DNA of 64,000 bases from Alloascoidea hylecoeti (lineage: Eukaryota), in contig BCKZ01000002.1 of assembly GCA_001600815.1 (NCBI GenBank), positions 1,186,294-1,250,293 on the forward strand, given 5' to 3'. Numbering within the stretch: the first letter of the stretch is position 1; the number at the start of each line of letters is the position of its first letter. Below the pieces are notes generated by a model. It did not search any database. It saw nothing but the letters and a program-made list of their open reading frames with translations, and was not told where the DNA came from. Both the position numbers and the translations under genes were made by a program. Of this stretch, positions 4,766-46,454 are shown piece by piece.

Positions 4766-5787
4766 AATTGTTATTTACTAAATCAAACAATAAAGTGTAT
4801 TATTTAAAAGGAAATCGTCTAAATTTTTATATTTTATATTTTTTCAAAACTAAGATTCGAATTCGAATAAAGGAAGTTGATACCTTGTTTTTATATCCTG
4901 CTTACCACATTGGGTAATTGATCTTTTTTTCTTTTTTCTTTTTTCTTTTTTGGTGTTGTTTAATACAATTGTTTTTCTATAATTAATTCTATTATTTGCT
5001 TTCTCTTGTATCTTGAAGACTCTGGGGTTTAGTTTTTCGAGTTATATATTATATTATTTCTCATGTTTTTTTATAGTACAAGTACTAGTACTGGTTCACT
5101 TTTAATCTTTTTTATGTTTTTGGGATCTTTTGTAAGATTATGATTATTAAATCATACTCTGTATATTTTCTCTTTTCTCTTTTCTCTTGTACATTCCCTC
5201 CTCTATTTTAAATTTTTAAATTGATTAAGCGTAAGATGATGTTTTTGATTTATTGGTTTTAAACTGTTGTATTTGATATATCATTATTGTAAACTAACTA
5301 GACTACATTAAATCAAAAATGATTATAAATATATAAAAGTTAGCTAGAGGAATAAACAACTTATTTTAACTTCGATATCGTAACTCAAGATGGAAGATTC
5401 AGCTTTCCCTTTTAGTAAATTCGCTGATATAGTACGATCGTATATTTATATGTATATTTATTGTGGTGGTCTTCAACAACTTTAAATTATGAATTTGAAT
5501 TGATACATGCCCTTTTCATTTAAAAAAGACTTCATACATAAATTTATATTAAACGTGTAACTATTAAAACCAAAACTATAGGCTATATTGATTTGGTTTT
5601 AACTAATACTAGAAAGTGTTAAATTTTTTTCTATGTACAAATTTTGTACCCAAGCATATTTTTTGTTATATACTGAATAAGAGGGAAATCTGACCATTGG
5701 AAAAAAGTGAGAAGAATGAGCCTTCAAACGATTGCTCCCACGGATCCTTGTAGATCGGGGATGGTCAAAATAAAAACATAAAAAGAA

Positions 5788-5894
5788 CGACAGCAGCAGG
5801 ATTTGAACCTGCGCGGGCAGAGCCCAAAAGATCACTAATATTCCAGAGAGGATTTAATTCGAGTCTTTCGCCTTAACCACTCGGCCATACTGCC
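5788..5894 (-). tRNA. tRNA-Ser(CGA) with a 25-nt intron (5833-5857)
   Basis: Minus strand reads GGCAGTATGGCCGAGTGGTTAAGGCG AAAGA CT CGA A [intron] A TCTTT TGGGCTCTGCCC GCGCAGGTTCAAATCCTGCTGCTGTCG. Long variable arm, 82-nt mature length, T-run terminator. Confidence 0.95.
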
Positions 5895-5913
5895 AATTTC
5901 TACCATCGTGGAG

Positions 5914-6701
5914 GGACTTTCCTTTGGTTATTGATTCCTGACTTATTACTAAAAATGAAAAAAAGGAAGAAATGGTGGGGATTTATCAAAGAAACATATA
6001 AGGAACACCCTGAGGAGACACAATGGATACATTTGCTCAGCTTGGGATACGTTACTTATATGCTATACCCTAACAAAAAAGCAAAACAATGGTGGCACAA
6101 ATCTGATATTTGTAGTTTATGTCAACAAGGTAAAGACGACATATTACATCTATTTGAAGATTACTCAACCATAAGAATACTAAAGAAGATGATGTTAGGA
6201 AGCGATAGAATTGGGATCAAATTATTGATCGTAAATCCAAAAGATAACCATATATATAGAAAAAAATGGGGCTTTTATCAAAAAGGCACTTGAGCTAAGG
6301 AAAATAATTAGATTTGCAGGGACACCACCACAAATATTAAATGAGATTGATTGGGGGATTCTAATATCTAAAAACTTGAAAAAGTAAAATATATTTAAAA
6401 AAAAAAAAATTTACTTTAAAGGTGGTCTAGGTACATAAGAAGGGAAGAAAGAAGAGTGTCAAAAATACACAAAAATAAGAAGAATAGAAAGAGAGGTTTT
6501 TATTTCACTATATATAGTAGAGATTTCCTCAGAATTTACATAGTTTCTAGTTATATAATTTAATTGGAAAATATATGAAAAGTTAAAAAAAAAATTCACT
6601 ACTATACTTGATGGCATTATTATGTCTTTACCACATAAAATAGATGCCATCAAGAAGTATAGTAGTGAAATAATAATAAGTCAGGAATCAAAGGAAAGTC
6701 C
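5914..6701. mobile_element. ~145-bp foldback/MITE-like element split by the LINE insertion
   Basis: 5914-5950 (GGACTTTCCTTTG..ATTCCTGACTTATTA) joined to 6595-6631 is the near reverse complement of 6639-6701 (..ATGCCATCAAGAAGTATAGTAGTGAAATAATAATAAGTCAGGAATCAAAGGAAAGTCC). Confidence 0.7.
5951..6594 (+). mobile_element. 5'-truncated, decayed non-LTR retrotransposon (L1-clade-like): ORF2 C-terminus, 3' UTR and poly(A)
   Basis: ORF contains CSLCQQGKDDILHLF (CxxC-x8-HLF zinc knuckle, last Cys lost). After a stop/frameshift it continues as LRKIIRF..., resembling the WxxRNxxxF motif, to TAA at 6387. A13 at 6397-6409 and A10 at 6585-6594. Ends are fixed by the interrupted foldback. Confidence 0.75.
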
Positions 6702-6760
6702 AATAATGAGTTCTTTACAACCCTTCAAAAACATGAACTCATGTTTTATGTATAACTCGA

Positions 6761-6842
6761 GTGATTCTCTCACTTAAATGGTTTCTATTTAAAAATTTTA
6801 ATTGGAAATTATACACATGTACTATATAAAGTTAAAAAAAAA
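6761..6842 (+). mobile_element. Older degenerate copy of the same retroelement 3' end
   Basis: GTGATTCTCTCACTTAAATGGTTTCTATTTAAAAATTTTAATTGGAAATTATA...AAAGTTAAAAAAAAA aligns with 6520-6594. Confidence 0.65.
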
Positions 6843-6928
6843 TAATCACGGTTTATATTATATATATTTGCTATACTTAAAGACTTTAGCTATCGATGTT
6901 CCATGTTTACAAAGATATTTCGAATTCC

Positions 6929-6955
6929 AACGTTAACGTTAACGTTAACGTTAAC
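6929..6955. repeat. (AACGTT)4.5 self-complementary tandem repeat
   Basis: aacgttaacgttaacgttaacgttaac seen directly. Confidence 0.95.
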
Positions 6956-7719
6956 TGCTAGTCTCATTCCATTGTTTCCGTAGTTACAATCCAACAGATC
7001 TAGATGAAGACCAGTCTGAAACCTTCACTCTTTAAGTCTTATCCATGTATTTATTCGCATGTAAACTTTTTTAAAGTATCAAACAGCTATTATACTAGTA
7101 CTCCAATGAATTAGAGTTTGAGTGTTAGAGTTGTATCGATTAAATTTGCCATTTTAGTGGAGAATTCTGTATGATAGTCCAAAGTAGAGTTGAAGATTAA
7201 TTGAATTTTTTTAGCCTCTGGAGAAGAATACACCACCTCTACTAGAGAGAATATGTTGACTCGGACTCCAAACAAAATTTAAATGAGAGCCTGTTCTGAG
7301 AGAATATAAATATTGATCTTTAATATCTCTACGTATAGCTATAGAAATCTAGATTTCTTCGATTTCCCCATCCAAAGTTGCTATAAAAAGATAACTGTAA
7401 TAAAATATTTGCACTTAAATTCTGTATGCGGTTTAATCGGGCCCAATCAAAGGGTGCATAATCGATTGGACTTAATTAGTTTTTATTATTTACTATAGTC
7501 ATCTTTAGCATAATAAAAACATGTTTCATAAATTATAATTATGTTTTCTTCTTCCTTAAATTTTCTGCCGTGAAAAAACGTAAGCGATCAAATTCGTGAT
7601 AACTGTGTTTGCCATTTTCTTTTTGACGACATATTTGTCTTCCGCTTTGATTATCTTTGTTTCATTTAAAGTTTCCCCTAATACTCGAGCTTGATTTGGA
7701 CCGACAACTTTTTTGAACA

Positions 7720-9588
7720 ATGGTTACTGAACGGTCTCCTCTTCTACGCCCTGTTCGTTCTGCTGCTCTTTCTATTAATGAATGTCTCGATATCCCAAAC
7801 CCTAGAGGGTTCACTACCTCAAATGAAAGGAGAGCATCTTCCGTGGTAATTGGATCTTCTGGTAGGGTCGGTTTTGTCTATCCCAGTGATATTTTTCCGG
7901 GAACCGATGGTGATGGTGATTTTGACCAAGATTATGATGACGACGACGATGATGATAATGATGATCTTGAAAATGGATATCTTCGGTCTGACGATGCCAA
8001 TCGACTGGTTAATATTCGTAGCATTGATGAAGCTAGAACTTTACTACGGGACCAAGAACATTTATTATCAGAGAATAACATAATATATCCTAATAAGGGT
8101 GGAAGTGCTTCAGGTAGCAGGTCAAGGCTAAGTCGACAAGAGTCACTTGCTTCAATTGGTGATGATATTCAAAGATTATCTGATGTGTGGGTTGGGGCAA
8201 TAGATAGTGGAAAAATTACAACAAACTGGTATAATGAGTTTACGGCGTTGGTTGTTACTTCGATCCCTTTAGCTATCACATTTCTACTACAAAATTCATT
8301 GTCTGTAGCGTCAATCTTTGTTGTAAGTCATTTAGGTAAAACGGAATTGGGAGCTGTCACATTAGGATCAATGACTGCAAATATCACAGGATTGGCAGCA
8401 TTTCAGGGTATGGCAACAGCTTTAGACACCTTATGCTCACAATCATATGGGGCTGGAAAATATAAACAAGTTGGTGTACATTTTCAAAGATGTACCGCTC
8501 TAATGTTGACCGTCTTTCTGGGTGTTTCATTAATATGGTGGTTTTCATATGATATATTAACAACAATAGTTGACGAAAAAGAATTGGCTTATTTAGCAAG
8601 CAGGTATCTTAGAATCATGATTATTGGTGCACCAGGGTATATTTTATTCGAAACAGGAAAGAAATTTTTACAAAGTCAAGGCATTTTCAAAGCTGGTACT
8701 TATGTTTTGATTATTTGTGCACCTTTAAATGCCATTTTAAACTATGTGCTTGTTTGGAATAAGCATATCGGTGTCGGTTATCTTGGAGCACCAATAGCGG
8801 TTGTAATAAACTATTGGCTAATGACAATATTATTATATTCTTATATTTACTTCATTGACGGTTATCAATGTTGGAACGGCTTTGAAATTTGCAAAGCATT
8901 TCAGAATTGGAATAGATTATCAAAATTGGTTATTCCTGGTGTGGTCACAGTAGAAGCCGAATTTTTAGCATTTGAGCTGTTAACACTAGCTTCTTCGAAA
9001 TTTGGACTCGCTTCTCTCGCAGCACAATCAGTTATTGCCACTATCGGAACATTAGCGTATCAAGTTCCATTTTCTATATCTGTGGCTGCTTCAACACGGA
9101 TAGCCAATCTTGTTGGTGCAACTTTAGTTGACGCTGCTAAAATCGCTACCACTGTTTCTCTCATAATGTCTGTAATAGGTGGGGCAATTAACTGTACTAT
9201 CCTTTACCTTGGAAGATTTCATTTGGCACGATGGTTTACAAATGAACCAGAAGTTATATCTTTAATTGTTGAAGTATTGCCTATTATAGCAATATTGCAA
9301 GTTGGAGATGGTCTTAATGCTGTATCTGCAGGTGCTTTGAGAGGCCAAGGAAGACAACAAATTGCCGGATATTTAAATTTGATGGTTTATTATGCTATTG
9401 CATTACCATTAGGATTATCACTTGCTTTCACATTTGGTTGGAAATTAAAAGGACTATGGATTGGTAATACGTTGGGACTAGTGATGCTTGGAATAGTTCA
9501 AACGTTTTTCTTACTTAGAGCAGACTGGCCTTCTATAATCGCTGAAGCGAGAGGTAGGAACGTCGATGAAAGAATTATTGCACATTAA
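7720..9588 (+). CDS. MATE family multidrug/toxin efflux transporter (ERC1/YDR338C-like)
   Basis: 622 aa with multiple TM segments. MATE motifs GHLG-like SHLGKTELGAVTLG, GMATALDTLCSQSYGA, STRIANLVGA and GALRGQGRQ. Confidence 0.92.
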   Translation: MVTERSPLLRPVRSAALSINECLDIPNPRGFTTSNERRASSVVIGSSGRVGFVYPSDIFPGTDGDGDFDQDYDDDDDDDNDDLENGYLRSDDANRLVNIRSIDEARTLLRDQEHLLSENNIIYPNKGGSASGSRSRLSRQESLASIGDDIQRLSDVWVGAIDSGKITTNWYNEFTALVVTSIPLAITFLLQNSLSVASIFVVSHLGKTELGAVTLGSMTANITGLAAFQGMATALDTLCSQSYGAGKYKQVGVHFQRCTALMLTVFLGVSLIWWFSYDILTTIVDEKELAYLASRYLRIMIIGAPGYILFETGKKFLQSQGIFKAGTYVLIICAPLNAILNYVLVWNKHIGVGYLGAPIAVVINYWLMTILLYSYIYFIDGYQCWNGFEICKAFQNWNRLSKLVIPGVVTVEAEFLAFELLTLASSKFGLASLAAQSVIATIGTLAYQVPFSISVAASTRIANLVGATLVDAAKIATTVSLIMSVIGGAINCTILYLGRFHLARWFTNEPEVISLIVEVLPIIAILQVGDGLNAVSAGALRGQGRQQIAGYLNLMVYYAIALPLGLSLAFTFGWKLKGLWIGNTLGLVMLGIVQTFFLLRADWPSIIAEARGRNVDERIIAH

Positions 9589-9837
9589 TAATAAATTTAG
9601 CATTACATTGATGACTGTGATTATATACATTTCTAGATCTCCGGATAACTAACTTTTACTTAACTAATATAAAATTTTCAGATTTTTCCCTTATTTAATA
9701 TTGTCTCTCAATCTGTACAGATTTTGATTTTGGGGATATAAGAAGTTTATAGATTTTATTGCAATTGGAGTACTAATATTACTTTTGTTTGCTTTACTTG
9801 TGTTCAAATTTGGTGAAATTTTCAATAGTTAGTTTGA

Positions 9838-9908
9838 TTTTTTACCTTTATGATCATAAAATCTAGATATAAGGATATAACGAGAAACTACATAGGTGAG
9901 GAAATCAC
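9838..9908 (-). mobile_element. Highly degenerate copy of the retroelement 3' end
   Basis: Minus strand GATTTCCTCA..TAGTTTCTCGTTATAT..AAAGGTAAAAAA keeps the same ordered blocks as 6521-6594. Confidence 0.5.
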
Positions 9909-9983
9909 ACAACCTCTAAATCTATATTCTTTCTATCAACTATTATAATAATTTCCTCTTTTATTCTTATAGCAGAAATCTGC

Positions 9984-10101
9984 TTTTTTTTTTCTTTAAC
10001 TTTTCATATATTTTCCAATTAAATTATATAACTAGAAACTATTTAAAGTCTGAGGAAATCTCTACTATATATAGTGAAATATAAACCTCTTTTTTTATTC
10101 T
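9984..10101 (-). mobile_element. Severely 5'-truncated copy of the retroelement (3' UTR plus poly(A))
   Basis: Reverse complement matches 6481-6587 with 5 mismatches in ~107 nt (hand count) and ends in GTTAAAG-A10. Confidence 0.8.
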
Positions 10102-10167
10102 GGGCGGCTTTTACGAAGGGCATATTGTGTGAATGAAAGGAGGGTAAATAGGAATGGAACAATACGA

Positions 10168-10240
10168 GGGCGTGTGGCGCAGTTGGTAGCGCGTTAGATT
10201 TGCATTCTAAAGGTCTCTGGTTCGATCCCTGACTCGTCCA
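10168..10240 (+). tRNA. tRNA-Ala(UGC)
   Basis: GGGCGTG...CTCGTCCA acceptor stem with G3:U70, anticodon arm TTAGA-TT TGC AT-TCTAA, B box GGTTCGATCCC, T5 terminator. One U-U mismatch in the T stem. Confidence 0.92.
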
Positions 10241-11467: not shown

Positions 11468-12943
11468 ATGGCTACTAACTCTGGAATTTCTGAAGTCGAA
11501 GAAGGCTTAATCGAGACAAATTATGAGGAAAGCGTCACAAATTTTGAGGAATTAAACTTAAAAAATGAAATCCTAAGAGGTAAGCTTATAATTGTGTATA
11601 TTTAGATATTTTCAGTTTGTGTATCTTCGATTTTAAAACTATTTGCTTGTTAAAGTGGTAATTTTTATGTTTAATTTTTGCTTTAAATGGTGTTGTTTTC
11701 GGTGATCAGATTTTATCAAATCATGTTGATCATTTGAAATTTGAAATTTGTCCTCATCACCAGATCACGCATTACATGCAAAAAATTCAATAACAATTAT
11801 AATCATAAGTTTAAAACGTTATAATTATGGATCGTACTAACAAGCTGTTTTTTTAAAGGTGTATATGGTTATGGTTATCAGACACCATCTGCCATTCAGC
11901 AAAGAGCTATTTTGCCAATCATCCAAGGCCGTGATACATTGGCGCAGGCTCAATCAGGAACAGGAAAAACTGCTACTTTTGCAATTTCCGCATTAGAAAG
12001 AATAGATCCCGCGGATAAATCAACACAGGCTCTTATTTTGGCCCCGACTAGAGAATTGGCTTTACAAAGTCAAAAGGTTGTAATGTCAATTGGAACCTAT
12101 TTAGATATAACTGTTCATGCATCTATAGGTGGTACTTCAATTAGAGAAGATTATGACGCTTTTAGAAGTGGGGTACAAATAATTGTAGGTACTCCTGGTC
12201 GTGTATTTGATATGATTGAAAGAAGAGCATTGAAGACCGATGGAATCAAAATGTTCATTCTTGATGAAGCTGATGAAATGTTATCATCAGGGTTTAAAGA
12301 ACAGATCTACAATATTTTCAAGTATTTACCTACTACTACACAAGTTGTATTGCTTTCTGCTACTATGCCTGTGGATGTTTTGGAAGTTACTACTAAATTT
12401 ATGAATGATCCTGTAAGAATTTTGGTTAAGAAAGATGAATTAACCCTAGAAGGTATCAAACAATTCTATGTCAATGTTGAACAAGAGGAGTACAAGTTTG
12501 AGTGTCTTTGTGATTTATACGATACAATTTCAGTCACTCAAGCAGTTATTTTCTGTAATACACGAAGAAAGGTTGAATGGTTGACCGAACAATTAGTAGA
12601 TCGTGACTTTACAGTTTCTTCAATACATTCCGATTTATCACAAAAGGAGAGAGATTTAATTATGAAGGCATTTAGATCAGGTTCTTCTAGAATTTTAATT
12701 TCTACAGATCTATTGGCCAGAGGAATTGACGTTCAACAAGTTTCTCTTGTTATTAATTTTGATTTACCAACAAATAAAGAAAACTACATCCACAGAATTG
12801 GTCGTGGTGGTCGTTTTGGTAGAAAGGGTGTTGCTATTAACTTTGTTACAAACGAAGACGTTGGAATAATGAGAGAGATTGAAACTTTCTATTCAACTCA
12901 AATAGAAGAAATGCCTAATGATATTGCTTCGCAGCTCGTTTAG
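11468..12943 (+). CDS. TIF1: Translation initiation factor eIF4A; exons 11468-11579 and 11859-12943
   Basis: [21 protein letters not shown] and [10 protein letters not shown] motifs. Intron GTAAGC..TACTAAC..AAG restores the Q motif [20 protein letters not shown]. Confidence 0.95.
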
Positions 12944-18569: not shown

Positions 18570-19504
18570 ATGGCTACAGACGATTGTTGCAAAAACTGTA
18601 ACGGTGGATCTAACGGCTTGAAAAATCACTCAAAGTCACAAGTCCCAAAAATCGATGAGAATGACTTATTAGTCACTTCGAATGAGCCGGAACATCCAGC
18701 AAATTTAATCTGTGAGCTTTGCAAATTATTTTATAATAATGGGTGGGTCACTGGAACCGGTGGTGGTATTAGTATTAGAGATGGGTATGAGATTTCGATT
18801 TGAAATAAGATCTAGAGATTGAGATTAACTTCTGTAATGTAGAACGAATATCTATATTGCACCATCCGGGGTCCAAAAAGAGGTAAGAGAAAGCATAGCA
18901 ACAATGCAACATTTATTATTCCCCTTCATATCATATTAATAACTGTAAATCATAGAGAATGGTCCCTGAAAATCTATTTGTTATGAATTTTGCTGATGAG
19001 AAATATATTAGAACCCCAAAGATCTTTAAACCATCAGCCTGTACCCCATTATTCATGTCAGCATACACAATGAGAAATGCCGGTGCTTGTATTCATACCC
19101 ATTCACAAAATGCTTTAATTGTGACATTAATCTTCGATAAGGTATTCCGAATCTCAACAATCGAACAAATCAAGGCAATTCCTAAAGTAACAAGCCCAGG
19201 AAACTTAAGCTTTTTTGATACATTGGAAATACCAATTATTGAAAACACAGCACACGAAGAAGATCTAACAGACTCTCTACAACAAGCTATTACAGAATAT
19301 CCACATGCTACCGCTGTTCTTGTTAGAAGACATGGAATTTATGTTTGGGGTGAGACTGTATGGAAAGCAAAGGTTTACAATGAAGCTATTGATTATCTAT
19401 TGGAAGTTGCAATAAAGATGCATCAACTTGGATTTCCAACCGTGGTTAACGATGATCAAAGAGCTACAATAAAAAAACGAAAGATCGAAGAAGTGTCAAA
19501 TTGA
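18570..19504 (+). CDS. MDE1: Methylthioribulose-1-phosphate dehydratase; exons 18570-18784, 18843-18882, 18956-19504
   Basis: [22 protein letters not shown] (restored by splicing), [14 protein letters not shown] and [10 protein letters not shown]. Confidence 0.93.
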
Positions 19505-34628: not shown

Positions 34629-39394
<4,766 letters not shown>

Positions 39395-41010: not shown

Positions 41011-44000
41011 TCATTGGTCTCTAAACCCGTCTTTCAAAACCCATAATTTCGATTTATTATCCCAGTCCGATATCTGCTTTAACATCTGTCTGGCTGATGC
41101 AATATCTTGAGACTCATTGATAGGTATACCTATTCTTTGGACAATATCCTGTGAACTTGCTTTGAATCCGTCTTGTTGTGAGAGAAAATTTCTTAACTTT
41201 TCAATTATTTCTTTTTGAGACTCCATATTTATTGATCTAGAAAAATTTGCTGAACTGAACGATACTGCCGAATTACATGTATTTCCTTCTAATTCTCTCT
41301 TTTTACGAATATTTTCCAAAATAGAGGATGAAGACATATCATTGACTTGAGATTTCTTTCTACCAAATTTTCCAGCTGTTCCAAATCGACCCGTCCAAGT
41401 GGGTGTACCAATATTAGCTTTACGAGTTGCTTTTCTAGATGCCTTTAGCATTTCAGCAGCTTTCTGGGCTACTCTTACAGCTTCTTTTTCTATGAGAATT
41501 GTGTCAGGTCTAGAGGCAGTCATTACGGCGTCATGTTCTAAGGTGCTGTGTACCCCAGAATTTGCAAATAGTCCTTCCATTATTCTATCATCGTCACTCG
41601 ATTTGAGCTCTTTTGTAAATGATCCATCGTCATTTGCATGATAGTCCTGGATACTAGATACTCCTGCCATTTCAGCCACTTGATAGAAATCATCTGCATC
41701 TTTTTCATTCTTCTTAGGTTGAGAATTTAACATTACATCTTCTCCTAATCTAGTTTCAGTACCTTTGAACATAATCCCGGTTTCAGTTGAGCTTTCACCA
41801 TCACCTAAAGCAAACAAATTATGTAAGTCCGTCGTTTTGAAAAACCTTCGCTGCTTGGGATCTTTCAAAATCTTATTTGTCAGAAATTGTTTAAATATTT
41901 GACGATGATATATTTTTTCTTCAATACATCCTGCCGTCATTAATCGATATATTGTTACATCTTTCTTTTGACCCAATCTCCAAGCCCTTTCTCTAGCTTG
42001 CATATCTGTGGAAGGGTTCCAATCCGGATCAAAAATGATGACACGGTCAGCACCTGTTAAATTAATGCCCAATCCACCAACTTTGGTAGTTAATAGAAAC
42101 ACATGATAGTCCAGATTATTATTAAATGTATCAACAAGAGACTGTCGGTTTCCTATTGGGGTCGATCCGTCCATTCGTAAAAACTTTACACCCAATTTTG
42201 AAATAAAAGTTTCTAATATATCTAACATTTGCTTTGTCTGACTGAACAACAAAGTACGATGACCTTCTTGTACCCACAATTGAATCAAAGCTTTTATCAC
42301 CTGCATTTTACCTGATTTATTTGGGGCCCCATATGTATAACCAGGTTTAGTACGTAAAATATCCCGATTTACCAAATCTGGATGATTACATATCTTTCTT
42401 AAAATATCAATTCCATATAAAGCTTGTCTTTTACCATCTAAAATGGATTTTAATTCTTCCGACTTCAAAAAATCAATATATGCATCCCGTTGTTGTTTAG
42501 TAAGTTTACAAAAAAGAACCTTCTCACTTTTATGAGGTAGATCTGATGCAACATCAACTTTCATGCGTCTAAGTAAATATGGAGATATTAAGTCCCGTAA
42601 TATAATTGCACATTTATAGGCTGTCTGTACTTGAACATTTGTTGCGTTTGCGTACCCCCCGAGATTTATTGGTATCGAGAACTGAGACTTGAATACAGGT
42701 AACGTTCCCAATCTTCCTGGGAAAACAAAATCAAAAAGACTCCAAAGTTCAATTAAATTATTTTGAATGGGGGTACCAGATAAAATTATTCTATTCCAGG
42801 TCTTAACTTGTTTACAAATCAATGAAATATCAGCATTAGGGTTGCGAATGTTGTGACCCTCGTCTAGAACGCAATATCCCCACAATTGTGGTAATAAAAG
42901 ATCACCATATACCTTCAATCCAACATATGTAGTAATTAATACATGTCCTTATGTTTGAAATGTTAGTATTAATAATATAAATATAAAATAAGTTAGGATA
43001 CATACCATTTTCAAAAACTCTATCGACAATCGCTTTACCGTTTGAGCGTGTTTTTTTTCCATACTCGCTTCTTATTCTTTTAGTAGTTTTATCATTGGAT
43101 TCCAGTAGCTCGCCCTCATCCTCTAAGTCTATATCAATATTCTCACCATGCATTCCACTTCCAATTGAATGGAGAATGACGGTCCTGAAAGGGGGCCACC
43201 ATCGATGGAACTCATTTACCCATTGCCTCATGACCGTAGCTGGACATACAATCAAAACAGGTTTATCTAATTTCCCACTATGATGTAGACCAGCTAGAAA
43301 TGAAATGATTTGAATTGTCTTACCTAAACCCATTTCATCTCCTATAATTCCTCCAGCTTTCTGAGAATATAGTTCCCATAGCCATTGAATTCCTGTCTTT
43401 TGATATTCAAATAAGCTTTCATATACGTCACCCGGTACCTTATATTCATGATCTAATGTCGCATCTGGAATACTTGGATGTGGTTGTAACCACTCGTCAA
43501 TGGATTTGTCATCGTGATCAGAACTCATATTTAATTGTTCTAGTGGGGAAGAGTTTGTTCTCATACTTTGCCTTCTAGATATCCATTTTGATAATCGTAG
43601 TTGGTAAAATAATTCATCACCATCATCTGTTACTATCTCTTTCTTTTCAACTTTTTGTTTTTTGCTTCCTTTCTTTTTTGCTTTAGTTGTGAAAATTTCT
43701 GGGTCACTGTCTTCATTGTTTATAAATTCATCTTCACTTTCTGCGTCATACGACTGTTTGTATTCTTGCAAGTCTTGTTGATCATCGTCTTTCAACGTAT
43801 CTGAAGCCTTACTGTCTGTATTATTATCATCATTTATATGTTTACGTTTAATAACAATCGCTTCAGATTCATAACTTGGTACTGAACCTATAGTTATTGG
43901 ATTATTAATTTCTGGTATCCTCAAATTTTTATGGGATTTCTGCTCCTCTTGATGATAGTTCTCCCCATCAATACCAATTTGTTTAAAGCCTCTGGTAGAG

Positions 44001-44566
44001 GAGAATGGCGTGATTTTTCCTGTCCGTATTAGAAATGCTTGCTCTGTTTCATTTGGTAACTTATGCACCTTTGTACCTTTATCTTCTAAACTTATCGTAG
44101 CGGATTCCCGCTGAAAATTTCTTAATCGGCCCTCAACATCCTTAATATCTTTCAAAACGGTTCCTAAATCGTTGCTTTTTATATCTTCTACCTGCTTTCG
44201 TATGCTCTCTTTTTGACTGATTCTTGTATTTCTATTTTGTAACTTTGACTCTAGAGAACTTATCCTATCTGTTATTATGTTTTTCTGATTTGATAACTTT
44301 TCTAGACGTTTTCGATCAAGTACCATATCTCTATCCAGCATTTCCATGTTTAATTTCCTGGCAACATTTTCTTCTATAATATCTTGCGACATGAATCGTA
44401 CTCCTAGTTCTTCAAGCGTAGTTGCTCTTTCGTCAATTTCAGCCTCATTATTATAATCAGGACTATTCAAACTCTGATCTTGTTCTTTGTGTTCTCGAAT
44501 ATGAGGTTGAGCTATTCCTCTCATATCCTCTTCTCCTGAATTTAATGGGCTTTCGAGTTTTGACAT
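41011..44566 (-). CDS. RAD26: Transcription-coupled repair ATPase Rad26/CSB; exons 44566-43006 and 42947-41011
   Basis: [34 protein letters not shown] and PTWTG. Intron GTATGT..TACTAAC..AAG joins the two ORFs (ENG|HVLITTY). The start codon is uncertain. Confidence 0.93.
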
Positions 44567-45232: not shown

Positions 45233-46454
45233 TTATTTGTTTTTCTTTTCCTCCTCTAATTTATCCTTTTCTTCTTGTAGTTGCTTTCTTTTTTCATAAA
45301 AATCCGAGATTACAGTTTCTGATTCAAAAGGACCATATTTTCTAAAGTCTTTAATAAGCTTGACTTTCTCCTGTTGGGTTAAAGATTCACTTGAGACTGT
45401 ATTGATATGTGTTTCGTAAATTACATCGAAATAATCTTGAGATAATAACAACTTATCAGAGGTTGCTAAAGTTTTCAAGGAATATTTATCATTTAAAGAA
45501 ACACCAAATCCTTCATCTGATTCAAGAAGAACACCAGCGTTGATGATTTTAGTTAGAGCGCCCATTCTACTAGCTTTCAAAAGACCACCAAGTTTTTTAA
45601 CTTTGTAATCTCTATGAGCTTCTCTCCATTCATCTAAAGTGGCACGTCTAACTCCAGTCCAACCAAGATTTACCAATATCTCACTACTCAGTTTAGCTTG
45701 TTTTTCTTTTATTTTCTTAAAGTTGAAAGAGGCCGGATTGATAATTCCTAGTCTAAATACCAGGTAAATCATGGCAATCTTAAAAACATGAAACGCGAAG
45801 AACAAAGATTGAGAAGTAAGAGATGATTCTGAGTTTAATTCATCTAATATAGATTTTGCCATTTCTTCTTGACCGTACCAGTGAACAGCAGTGCCAAATA
45901 AAAGAGTAAGCACATTAGTGAGACAAATTCCTGGTGTAGGTGAAATGAAATCAGGCAAATCAGTATATAACCAAGCAAACAATAAAAACAAGAACACAAG
46001 GTGACGTTGACTATTGAATTCCCAAAGTGGGACCACCAATTGACAGGGCCATAATTGCTCCCCAAATGATTTCTCATCATCTAACTTGGAGATAAATTTG
46101 TCTTCTGCTGATTCGTATGGAAATAAAATACCACCATCCGGAGTTAAAAATCCGGGGAACTTTGAAGCAGCAAATCCAACAGGCGTCTCATTGTAAAATA
46201 AGGATGGTCTTAAAGCAATCGGAAGAACATCGAAAATTTTGTACAAATTTTTAACAGGATCTGGAAGAATAAAAACAAATAATCATTAGTACTTGGTTAG
46301 CTTATATGAAACTTAAATACCGGTACATACCGGCTTTCTTCAGAAAAAAACAGTAATCTTTTTCAAAATCATCGTTCATACGAACAAATACGTCCATTGC
46401 TGGCTCATCCAAGCTGATGATGACAGGTTCCTTTTTTTCCTGCTGTTCTGTCAT
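45233..46454 (-). CDS. GSF2: ER membrane glucose signalling factor 2; exons 46454-46331 and 46260-45233
   Basis: MDVFVRMNDDFEKDYCF, LRPSLF, QLWPCQLVVP and WLYTDLPDFISPTPGICLTN. Confidence 0.9.

Follow-up and report, generated by a model that had tools for sequence, protein, structure and literature searches.

Why both transfer RNA (tRNA) genes in a 64,000-bp stretch of the genome of Alloascoidea hylecoeti are preceded, at nearly the same distance and in the same relative orientation, by a poly(A)-tailed copy of one and the same repeat is the question addressed here. The stretch (assembly GCA_001600815.1, contig BCKZ01000002.1, positions 1,186,294 to 1,250,293 of the forward strand) is referred to as the window, and positions are counted from its first letter. 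The identity of the repeat as a 5'-truncated, poly(A)-ended retroelement without long terminal repeats (non-LTR), of the type known as long interspersed nuclear elements (LINEs), is well supported, and we consider it probable that the element is a LINE of a budding yeast that targets genes transcribed by RNA polymerase III (Pol III).

Rfam returned two matches at gathering score in the window, both of them tRNA genes. The gene at positions 10168-10240 on the plus strand is a tRNA-Ala(UGC) gene (Ala(tgc) by ARAGORN; 61.4 bits with Rfam). The other, at positions 5788-5894 on the minus strand (Rfam RF00005, 48.5 bits), was placed at 5787-5895 by ARAGORN run with introns, which misplaced the intron and called the isotype Thr. 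The long variable arm of the printed sequence is that of a class II tRNA, and we take the gene to be a tRNA-Ser(CGA) gene with an intron 3' of the anticodon, the isotype being our own reading, made with the gene of Saccharomyces cerevisiae in mind, and not the call of a program. A preliminary description of this locus, made from the letters alone, had likewise named it tRNA-Ser.

Copy 1 of the repeat (5952-6594, plus strand, 643 bp) and copy 2 (9984-10101, minus strand, 118 bp; nhmmer E 6.6e-19) share an inverted repeat of 114 nt (6481-6594 against 9988-10101), in which 108 of 114 positions are identical, and each closes in an A-run (6585-6594 and 9984-9993, the latter appearing as T on the plus strand). 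Both copies turn their 5' end toward the tRNA gene and have a transcriptional orientation opposite to it. The spacer to the mature tRNA 5' end measures 56 bp at tRNA-Ser (5894 to 5951; 56-57 bp for the interval 5895-5951) and 66 bp at tRNA-Ala (10101 to 10168; interval 10102-10167), which means that both tRNA genes of the window carry an insertion about 40-65 bp upstream in opposite orientation. The inverted-repeat alignment thereby bore out several claims of the preliminary description: a poly(A)-tailed copy of one element upstream of both tRNA genes, an identity of about 95% over about 107 nt, and 5' ends that face the tRNA and are unequal, with a common 3' end. Since the two spacers are unrelated (best local score 13) and the tRNA isotypes differ, the insertions are independent and do not belong to a duplicated block. 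The chance of two clusters lying at most 70 bp upstream of both tRNA genes in the given orientation is P ~6e-7 over the whole window, and 2.7e-6 when only the DNA outside long open reading frames (ORFs) is considered.

The behavior of the repeat beyond the window was followed in the contigs of four public sequencing runs, placed on positions 5700-7000 at a likeness of at least 80%. Three of these runs hold the locus (X1, X2 and X4, which represent two isolates of one organism and, in the case of X2, a wood-decay metagenome, and come from three studies), with 201, 220 and 201 matching contigs, respectively. The flanks (5700-5831 and 6624-7000) are at single-copy depth (about 59-61 in X1), and the summed contig depth amounts to about 15-70 times the flank depth over the ORF part and the proximal 3' untranslated region (UTR; 5964-6447), then climbs to about 160, about 330 and 500-600 times over 6448-6491, 6492-6535 and 6536-6579, respectively, with the same shape in the three runs; by the caveat of the tool itself such sums are not copy numbers, and they are used here only as a sign of many copies and of a rise toward the 3' end. 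The 3' end of the element is fixed and its tails vary in length: 17 contigs of X1 diverge from the element at 6592-6594 and run into mutually different, A-rich sequence (agreement of about 0.5), and A-runs close copies 1 and 2 as well as an older copy 3, described below. The 5' ends, in turn, are variable, at 5952 and the equivalent of 6481 in the window and, elsewhere, at joints or loose ends near 6000, 6022, 6307, 6440 and 6472-6476. Some contigs extend 5' of copy 1, and their in-frame letters match the N-terminal extension of two related protein fragments, P0015 and P0005. Moreover, one 173-nt contig, common to the three runs, spans 6331-6511 of a diverged copy; the end of the ORF, the A-run and the tail are thus contiguous elsewhere in the genome. 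The non-LTR reading with 5' truncation and poly(A), put forward in the preliminary description, thus holds, on the strength of the fixed 3' end, the variable 5' ends, the depth rising in the 3' direction and the discrete insertion at copy 1.

The same observations bear on the alternative raised alongside that reading, namely that the repeat is a solo LTR, or some other non-LINE repeat unrelated to the zinc-knuckle ORF of copy 1. Solo LTRs are common upstream of yeast tRNA genes (Ty1, Ty3 and the beta element of Tca8, according to the accessible parts of the literature). Nevertheless, the 5' end of the repeat varies, its 3' end is constant and lies in an A-run, neither TG..CA ends nor a 5-bp duplication are seen, and the repeat is contiguous with the ORF end in another genomic copy as well as in the unit inserted here, which makes this explanation extremely improbable; the LTR reading is, for practical purposes, refuted.

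A second possibility is suggested by the shape of the depth profile. The last 120-150 nt might constitute a separate short non-autonomous element (resembling short interspersed nuclear elements, or a 'tail-only' parasite) that shares its 3' end with the LINE or has borrowed it, and of which copy 2 would be a representative, targeting still being effected by the LINE machinery. The summed depth jumps about 7-fold from 6404-6447 to 6448-6491, a joint leads from 6593 to 6472, several of the listed contigs start at 6472-6476, and the run of 13 A at 6397-6409 could be an older tail. Rfam, however, detects no tRNA, 5S or 7SL-like head in the repeat at gathering score; copy 2 starts at the equivalent of 6481 and not at 6472-6476; the depth is still rising within 6448-6579, as it would with graded truncation; and the contig bridging 6331-6511 in another copy indicates that ORF end, A-run and tail travel together. 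The cluster of starts may itself be a selection effect, the contigs in question being among the longest of about 670 pieces. We therefore hold a separate short element to be unlikely and retain the graded truncation of a single LINE. The listed contigs of the three runs that start matching at 6472-6476 do so after unmatched sequence, and the cluster at 6472-6481 may correspond to a preferred 5' end or to a discrete subfamily of about 120 nt. The RNA fold of the tail is not distinctive (z -1.7), and a DNA pattern built from the conserved tail found no match in metagenome, genome or viral contig collections.

Copy 1 interrupts a palindrome with arms of about 70 nt that begins 19 bp upstream of tRNA-Ser. 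The left arm is split by the copy: its outer part (5913-5951) forms the distal portion of the tRNA spacer, and the remainder of the palindrome (6595-6701) comprises the inner left arm (6595-6631), the loop and the right arm (6633-6701), as delineated by the inverted repeats I7, I10, I13 and I16 and by single-copy depth. As a DNA hairpin the palindrome reaches -23.2 kcal/mol (z -8.8), and its arms differ by indels of 7 nt and 3 nt. When joined, 5913-5951 and 6595-6631 align colinearly, across the junction, with the reverse complement of 6633-6701. Because this right arm serves as a local 'empty' site that aligns across the junction, 5952-6594 represents one insertion without target-site duplication, and the simplest reading is a pre-existing palindrome split by a single 643-bp insertion. 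The palindrome itself may have originated as a foldback repair scar or as a small foldback element. The empty-site alignment places the 5' junction within a few bases of position 5951 proposed in the preliminary description; the possibility that 5913-5951 is wholly LINE sequence was considered and dropped, the colinear alignment giving the better fit. A target-site duplication is absent from copy 1 by the empty-site alignment, and copy 2 shows no visible one either. In its empty form the site of copy 1 is free of A-runs, as are both flanks of copy 2, which are not A-rich either.

Copy 1, delimited by the empty-site alignment, the related ORF fragments and the run contigs, consists of an ORF remnant (5955-6293) that continues, past a frameshift near 6245-6260, as 6235-6387 to the stop, followed by the internal run of 13 A (6397-6409), a 3' UTR (6410-6584) and a tail of 10 A (6585-6594). 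The empty-site alignment and the 173-nt bridging contig make the ORF remnant and the 114-nt repeat parts of one inserted unit. The internal A-run lies 10 nt past the ORF stop and recalls the internal A tract of the Zorro3 element; it could be the fossil tail of an ancestral shorter element.

What the ORF remnant encodes was approached through its relatives. A HMMER scan of 1.84 billion representative proteins yielded 12 hits, nine of which are short fragments (38-159 aa, 52-82% identical); these nine, matched by exact sequence, are single-member clusters from NCBI genome contigs. The three long hits (P0008, P0009 and P0011) are repetitive, carry unrelated domains and were dismissed as composition-driven. 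An alignment search added two further fragments, P0014 and P0015, bringing the related ORF fragments to 11, and all of them match 5973-6338 (tblastn, E 1e-10 to 6e-33). A C-x2-C-x7-H-x4-C motif is intact in several of these fragments, and the zf-RVT domain (PF13966) is the top Pfam match, below threshold, in four of 12 sequences (the 11 fragments plus the window ORF, P0013), with E-values of 3.5e-4, 9.3e-4, 1e-3 and 0.047, all on profile positions 47-82. One neighboring protein cluster carries zf-RVT on 13% of its members. The motif is located about 80 codons upstream of the stop codon bordering the 3' UTR and tail, the usual place of the knuckle in ORF2. It is likely, judging from these sequence likenesses below the curated threshold, that this is a zinc knuckle of the ORF2 type. 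The preliminary description had attributed such a knuckle to copy 1 itself, and this stands only in part: the relatives have the intact motif and the sub-threshold zf-RVT matches, but the knuckle of the window copy is degenerate (C-x2-C-x7-H-x4-Y, with Y for the fourth Cys) and finds no match in Pfam. The HMMER search that had been suggested for the recovery of a full-length copy returned only fragments of at most 159 aa, without a reverse transcriptase (RT). AlphaFold2 run on alignment A4 gave a mean predicted confidence (pLDDT) of 48.9, too poor for a fold search, and a protein profile (A3) found no relative in metagenome, viral or genome contig collections.

One of the 11 fragments offers a view of a locus outside the window. 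P0004 is the only fragment that starts well outside the element, and the reverse complement of its back-translated N-terminal part is compatible with a T-arm (two 5-bp stem halves around a T-loop consensus) together with a complete cloverleaf; 78 of 2000 shuffled P0004 peptides also allow a tRNA-compatible reading. The antisense T-arm of the tRNA-Ser of the window translates in the same way as the N-terminal part of P0004. From the inferred tRNA 5' end to the first element codon there would be about 57 nt, and the inferred tRNA would be antisense to the element. P0004 thus appears to repeat the geometry of the window at an independent locus, to which it lends weak support. Spurious ORFs running from a tRNA into short tails through the open frame of the 3' UTR were also sought, and no candidates were obtained.

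The two near-consensus copies are not the only ones in the window. Copy 3 (6773-6842, possibly to 6848, plus strand), consisting of the last ~70 nt of the element plus an A-run, is situated distal to copy 1 and oriented like it; it is not significant by nhmmer alone (E=7), and its support comes from a shuffle test, in which its local alignment score of 50 (shuffle mean 20.7) was attained by none of 300 shuffles. A probable copy 4, likewise an older decayed tail, lies distal to copy 2 in the same orientation (minus strand; core 9838-9906, extended to about 9966 by eye only), with a score of 33 that was reached by two of 300 shuffles, two control stretches of the same size remaining at the shuffle mean. 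Both decayed copies follow the final ~70 nt of the element colinearly and close in an A-run. The four copies form two head-to-tail stacks, in each of which the well-preserved copy adjoins the tRNA gene and the decayed one lies farther out. Away from tRNA genes, blastn, nhmmer and tblastn searches with the element and its protein relatives revealed no convincing copy in the 64 kb. The earlier statement that no copy exists elsewhere in the window is accordingly correct for DNA remote from tRNA genes, but it missed the two decayed tails (6773-6842 and about 9838-9906) standing behind the first two copies.

These stacks, together with the empty site, bear on the possibility that the LINE is untargeted, or aims at A/T-rich or poly(A) sequence in the manner of Zorro3, its copies persisting nowhere but in gene-free stretches preceding tRNA genes and its tails stacking by way of earlier poly(A) tails. 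Zorro3 does integrate into poly(A) tracts without target-site duplication, according to the accessible text of its description. Elsewhere in the genome, stacked tails follow one another with 0-3 nt between them (the joint 6593 to 6472, with three letters between, and the joint 6594 to 6000, with two letters between, are such head-to-tail stacks), and the genome is compact (18 long ORFs within 64 kb), so that insertions at other sites could plausibly have been selected against. On the other hand, the empty copy 1 site and the flanks of copy 2 lack the expected A-rich target, the approximately 30 kb outside long ORFs hold no other copy, and survival bias leaves the common orientation and the spacing of 56, 66 and about 57 bp unexplained. 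Furthermore, the decayed copy is distal in both stacks, the reverse of what tail-targeting predicts; since the preserved copy is proximal, and targeting of tails would put the younger copy distal, the order of the stacks fits an insertion point anchored at the tRNA gene. Untargeted or poly(A)-aimed insertion is thus judged quite unlikely, and tRNA-directed insertion remains the preferred interpretation.

tRNA genes are barriers to replication forks, and capture of DNA at breaks produces insertions without duplications. LINE cDNA could consequently have been captured, independently of an endonuclease, at breaks caused by fork stalling at tRNA genes, in keeping with the missing duplication at copy 1 and with the palindrome at the same site, which could be a scar of break repair. 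Such capture would be expected to produce randomly oriented copies, often truncated at the 3' end, yet all four copies of the window retain a complete 3' end with an A tail and are oriented alike with respect to the tRNA, the spacing being similar at unrelated loci. We regard this route as improbable and return to targeting of the tRNA genes by the element.

In the scheme that we favor, the repeat would be the 3' part of a LINE whose last ORF closes with a zf-RVT-type C-x2-C-x7-H-x4-C knuckle, followed by a 3' UTR of about 200 nt and poly(A). Target-primed reverse transcription that often stops early would generate many 5'-truncated tails with one fixed 3' end. New copies would be placed about 55-65 bp upstream of the mature tRNA 5' end, with the element 5' end toward the tRNA and without target-site duplication, the first nick being made about 55-65 bp upstream and reverse transcription proceeding toward the tRNA, starting on the distal side. 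Successive insertions at a single tRNA gene would displace older copies outward and so build the head-to-tail stacks. The guide would be an element protein that recognizes the Pol III pre-initiation complex (TFIIIB/TFIIIC), as the ORF1 protein of TRE5-A does, and by this analogy guidance by the Pol III complex is the most likely mechanism.

Several points weigh against this interpretation, in addition to the limit on summed depth given above. The sample is tiny: the window contributes two loci, and a third, external one is inferred. The case for a tRNA in P0004, made by back-translation, is a weak one (shuffling p ~0.04). The significance of copy 4 is marginal. BLASTP similarity to longer copies reaches back to 5931 ('LIPDL' versus 'LIPKL' or 'LIPEL'); if it is taken as element sequence, the spacer at tRNA-Ser shrinks to about 36 bp, and the junction is uncertain by about 20 bp, although we regard this similarity as chance or microhomology. 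With respect to the protein, Pfam gives the window peptide no match at E<=1, the zf-RVT scores of its relatives (14.8-21.6 bits) are all below the gathering cut-off of 27.5, and neither RT, endonuclease nor ORF1, nor any true relative longer than 159 aa, was found in the full HMMER scan and a word-based search. Solved structures, including human L1 ORF2p, gave no match at E<=10 beyond two rows at chance level (E 0.25 and 0.76). The association with tRNA genes is, all the same, supported on this small sample by both tRNA genes of the window, four copies and P0004.

The comparison with known elements draws on the accessible portions of the published descriptions. In the table of a 2018 review of Pol III targeting, non-LTR targeters are confined to dictyostelids (TRE5, 40-54 bp upstream; TRE3; NLTR-A; NLTR-B, 39-64 bp), and the yeast entries are LTR elements only; a 2016 dictyostelid survey likewise covers the tRNA-targeting non-LTR elements of that group. 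TRE5 insertions lie about 44-54 bp upstream of tRNA genes, with opposite transcriptional orientation, and the ORF1 protein of TRE5-A binds TBP, Brf1 and Bdp1, targeting requiring the B box; the integrase of Ty3 also binds TFIIIB. TRE5-A, -B and -C of Dictyostelium discoideum and NLTR-B of Polysphondylium pallidum share with the element described here an oligo(A) end and insertion upstream of tRNA genes in opposite orientation (here at 56, 66 and about 57 bp), and they have a zinc finger at the end of ORF2, where the yeast element has a likely one. Their hosts are amoebozoans as opposed to a budding yeast, the likeness is one of behavior, and the contact of TRE5-A ORF1 with TFIIIB is for the yeast element only an analogy. 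Unlike the TRE5 systems, the yeast element leaves no target-site duplication at the one site that can be judged, copy 1. The element resembles TRE5 and NLTR-B in behavior and is unplaced by descent.

Closer to the host, the L1-type yeast LINEs Zorro3 of Candida albicans and Ylli of Yarrowia lipolytica have, as here, poly(A) 3' ends, 5'-truncated copies, no duplications, and internal A-runs (a 19-bp A tract between the ORFs in Zorro3), and their ORF2 has a Cys-rich C-terminus, comparable to the likely knuckle of the present element; these likenesses are those of the published descriptions. Since Zorro3 produces no target-site duplication, and Ylli no recognizable one, the missing duplication does not exclude the element from the LINEs. 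In contrast to the A-run-free site described here, Zorro3 targets poly(A) tracts, which would leave A-runs on both flanks; its authors state that they found it unassociated with tRNA genes, and the available text on Ylli mentions no tRNA preference. A study of Scheffersomyces stipitis, in its accessible part, records LINEs in six of eight CTG-clade species and does not discuss tRNA genes. Nested or stacked remnants upstream of Pol III genes, similar to those of the window, are formed by Ty3 and Ty1 of S. cerevisiae, Tca8/beta of C. albicans and Tyl3/Tyl6 of Y. lipolytica, but these are LTR elements with an integrase, TG..CA ends and 5-bp duplications, Ty3 inserting at the transcription start and Ty1 up to about 1 kb away. 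The earlier statement that Pol III targeting in yeasts is known for LTR elements only agrees with the 2018 table and with the Zorro3 study, as far as these sources could be consulted. Searches of the accessible full texts brought up no budding-yeast LINE associated with tRNA genes; they did not extend to subscription papers, Repbase reports or supplements.

The window encodes, among others, Anp1, a forkhead protein, a MatE transporter, Pab1-like, Chd1-like and Rli1-like proteins, the pentafunctional Aro1, Gsf2, Rse1, a Ktr-type mannosyltransferase and a P-type ATPase; its G+C content is 34%, and about 30 kb lie outside its 18 long ORFs. This gene set and base composition fit a budding yeast as host. 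The Aro1-like gene at 34629-35290 is divided into two frames about 45 nt apart (35244-35287; '...GEVIK' followed by 'TAAIWNE...'), a pattern more suggestive of a short intron than of a broken gene. A SNF2-type helicase at 41011-44566 (minus strand) is split over two ORFs, and the genes for a DEAD-box helicase, a class II aldolase-like protein and a Gsf2-like protein start within a Pfam domain (sites 12083-12943, plus; 18959-19504, plus; and 45233-45862, minus). The split and mid-domain-starting genes suggest that short introns are common in this yeast. A hexamer, ACGTTA, is repeated in tandem in about four units at 6930-6955, with GTTAAC sites, between the retroelement debris and the MatE gene. 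The wood-decay metagenome X2 holds 86% of the sampled words. In the fourth run, X5, an insect metagenome, only 10 contigs were placed, too few to inform on the element. Two of them, each of 151 nt, are identical to the unique sequence at 6543-6693 and 6795-6945; this yeast, or one almost identical to it, would seem to occur there at low depth.

Targeting of tRNA genes is the textbook means by which retrotransposons spare hosts with compact genomes, as exemplified by Ty1, through AC40, and Ty3, through TFIIIB. We narrowly favor the broader view that the element is an independently evolved LINE aimed at Pol III genes, which has left hundreds of stacked tails at a large share of the tRNA genes of its host; it would then be the first non-LTR case outside the dictyostelids and, next to Ty1 and Ty3, a third, independent way in which tRNA genes are targeted in yeasts. 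It would also matter for the annotation of yeast genomes, where tails this short readily escape notice or are taken for small ORFs. If the interpretation is correct, it would provide a fresh case of convergence, target-primed tRNA targeting being otherwise documented only in dictyostelids, in a host group with developed Pol III factors, genetics and retrotransposition assays, Zorro3 already working in S. cerevisiae, and it would allow one to ask how a DNA-nicking ribonucleoprotein is positioned by TFIIIB/TFIIIC.

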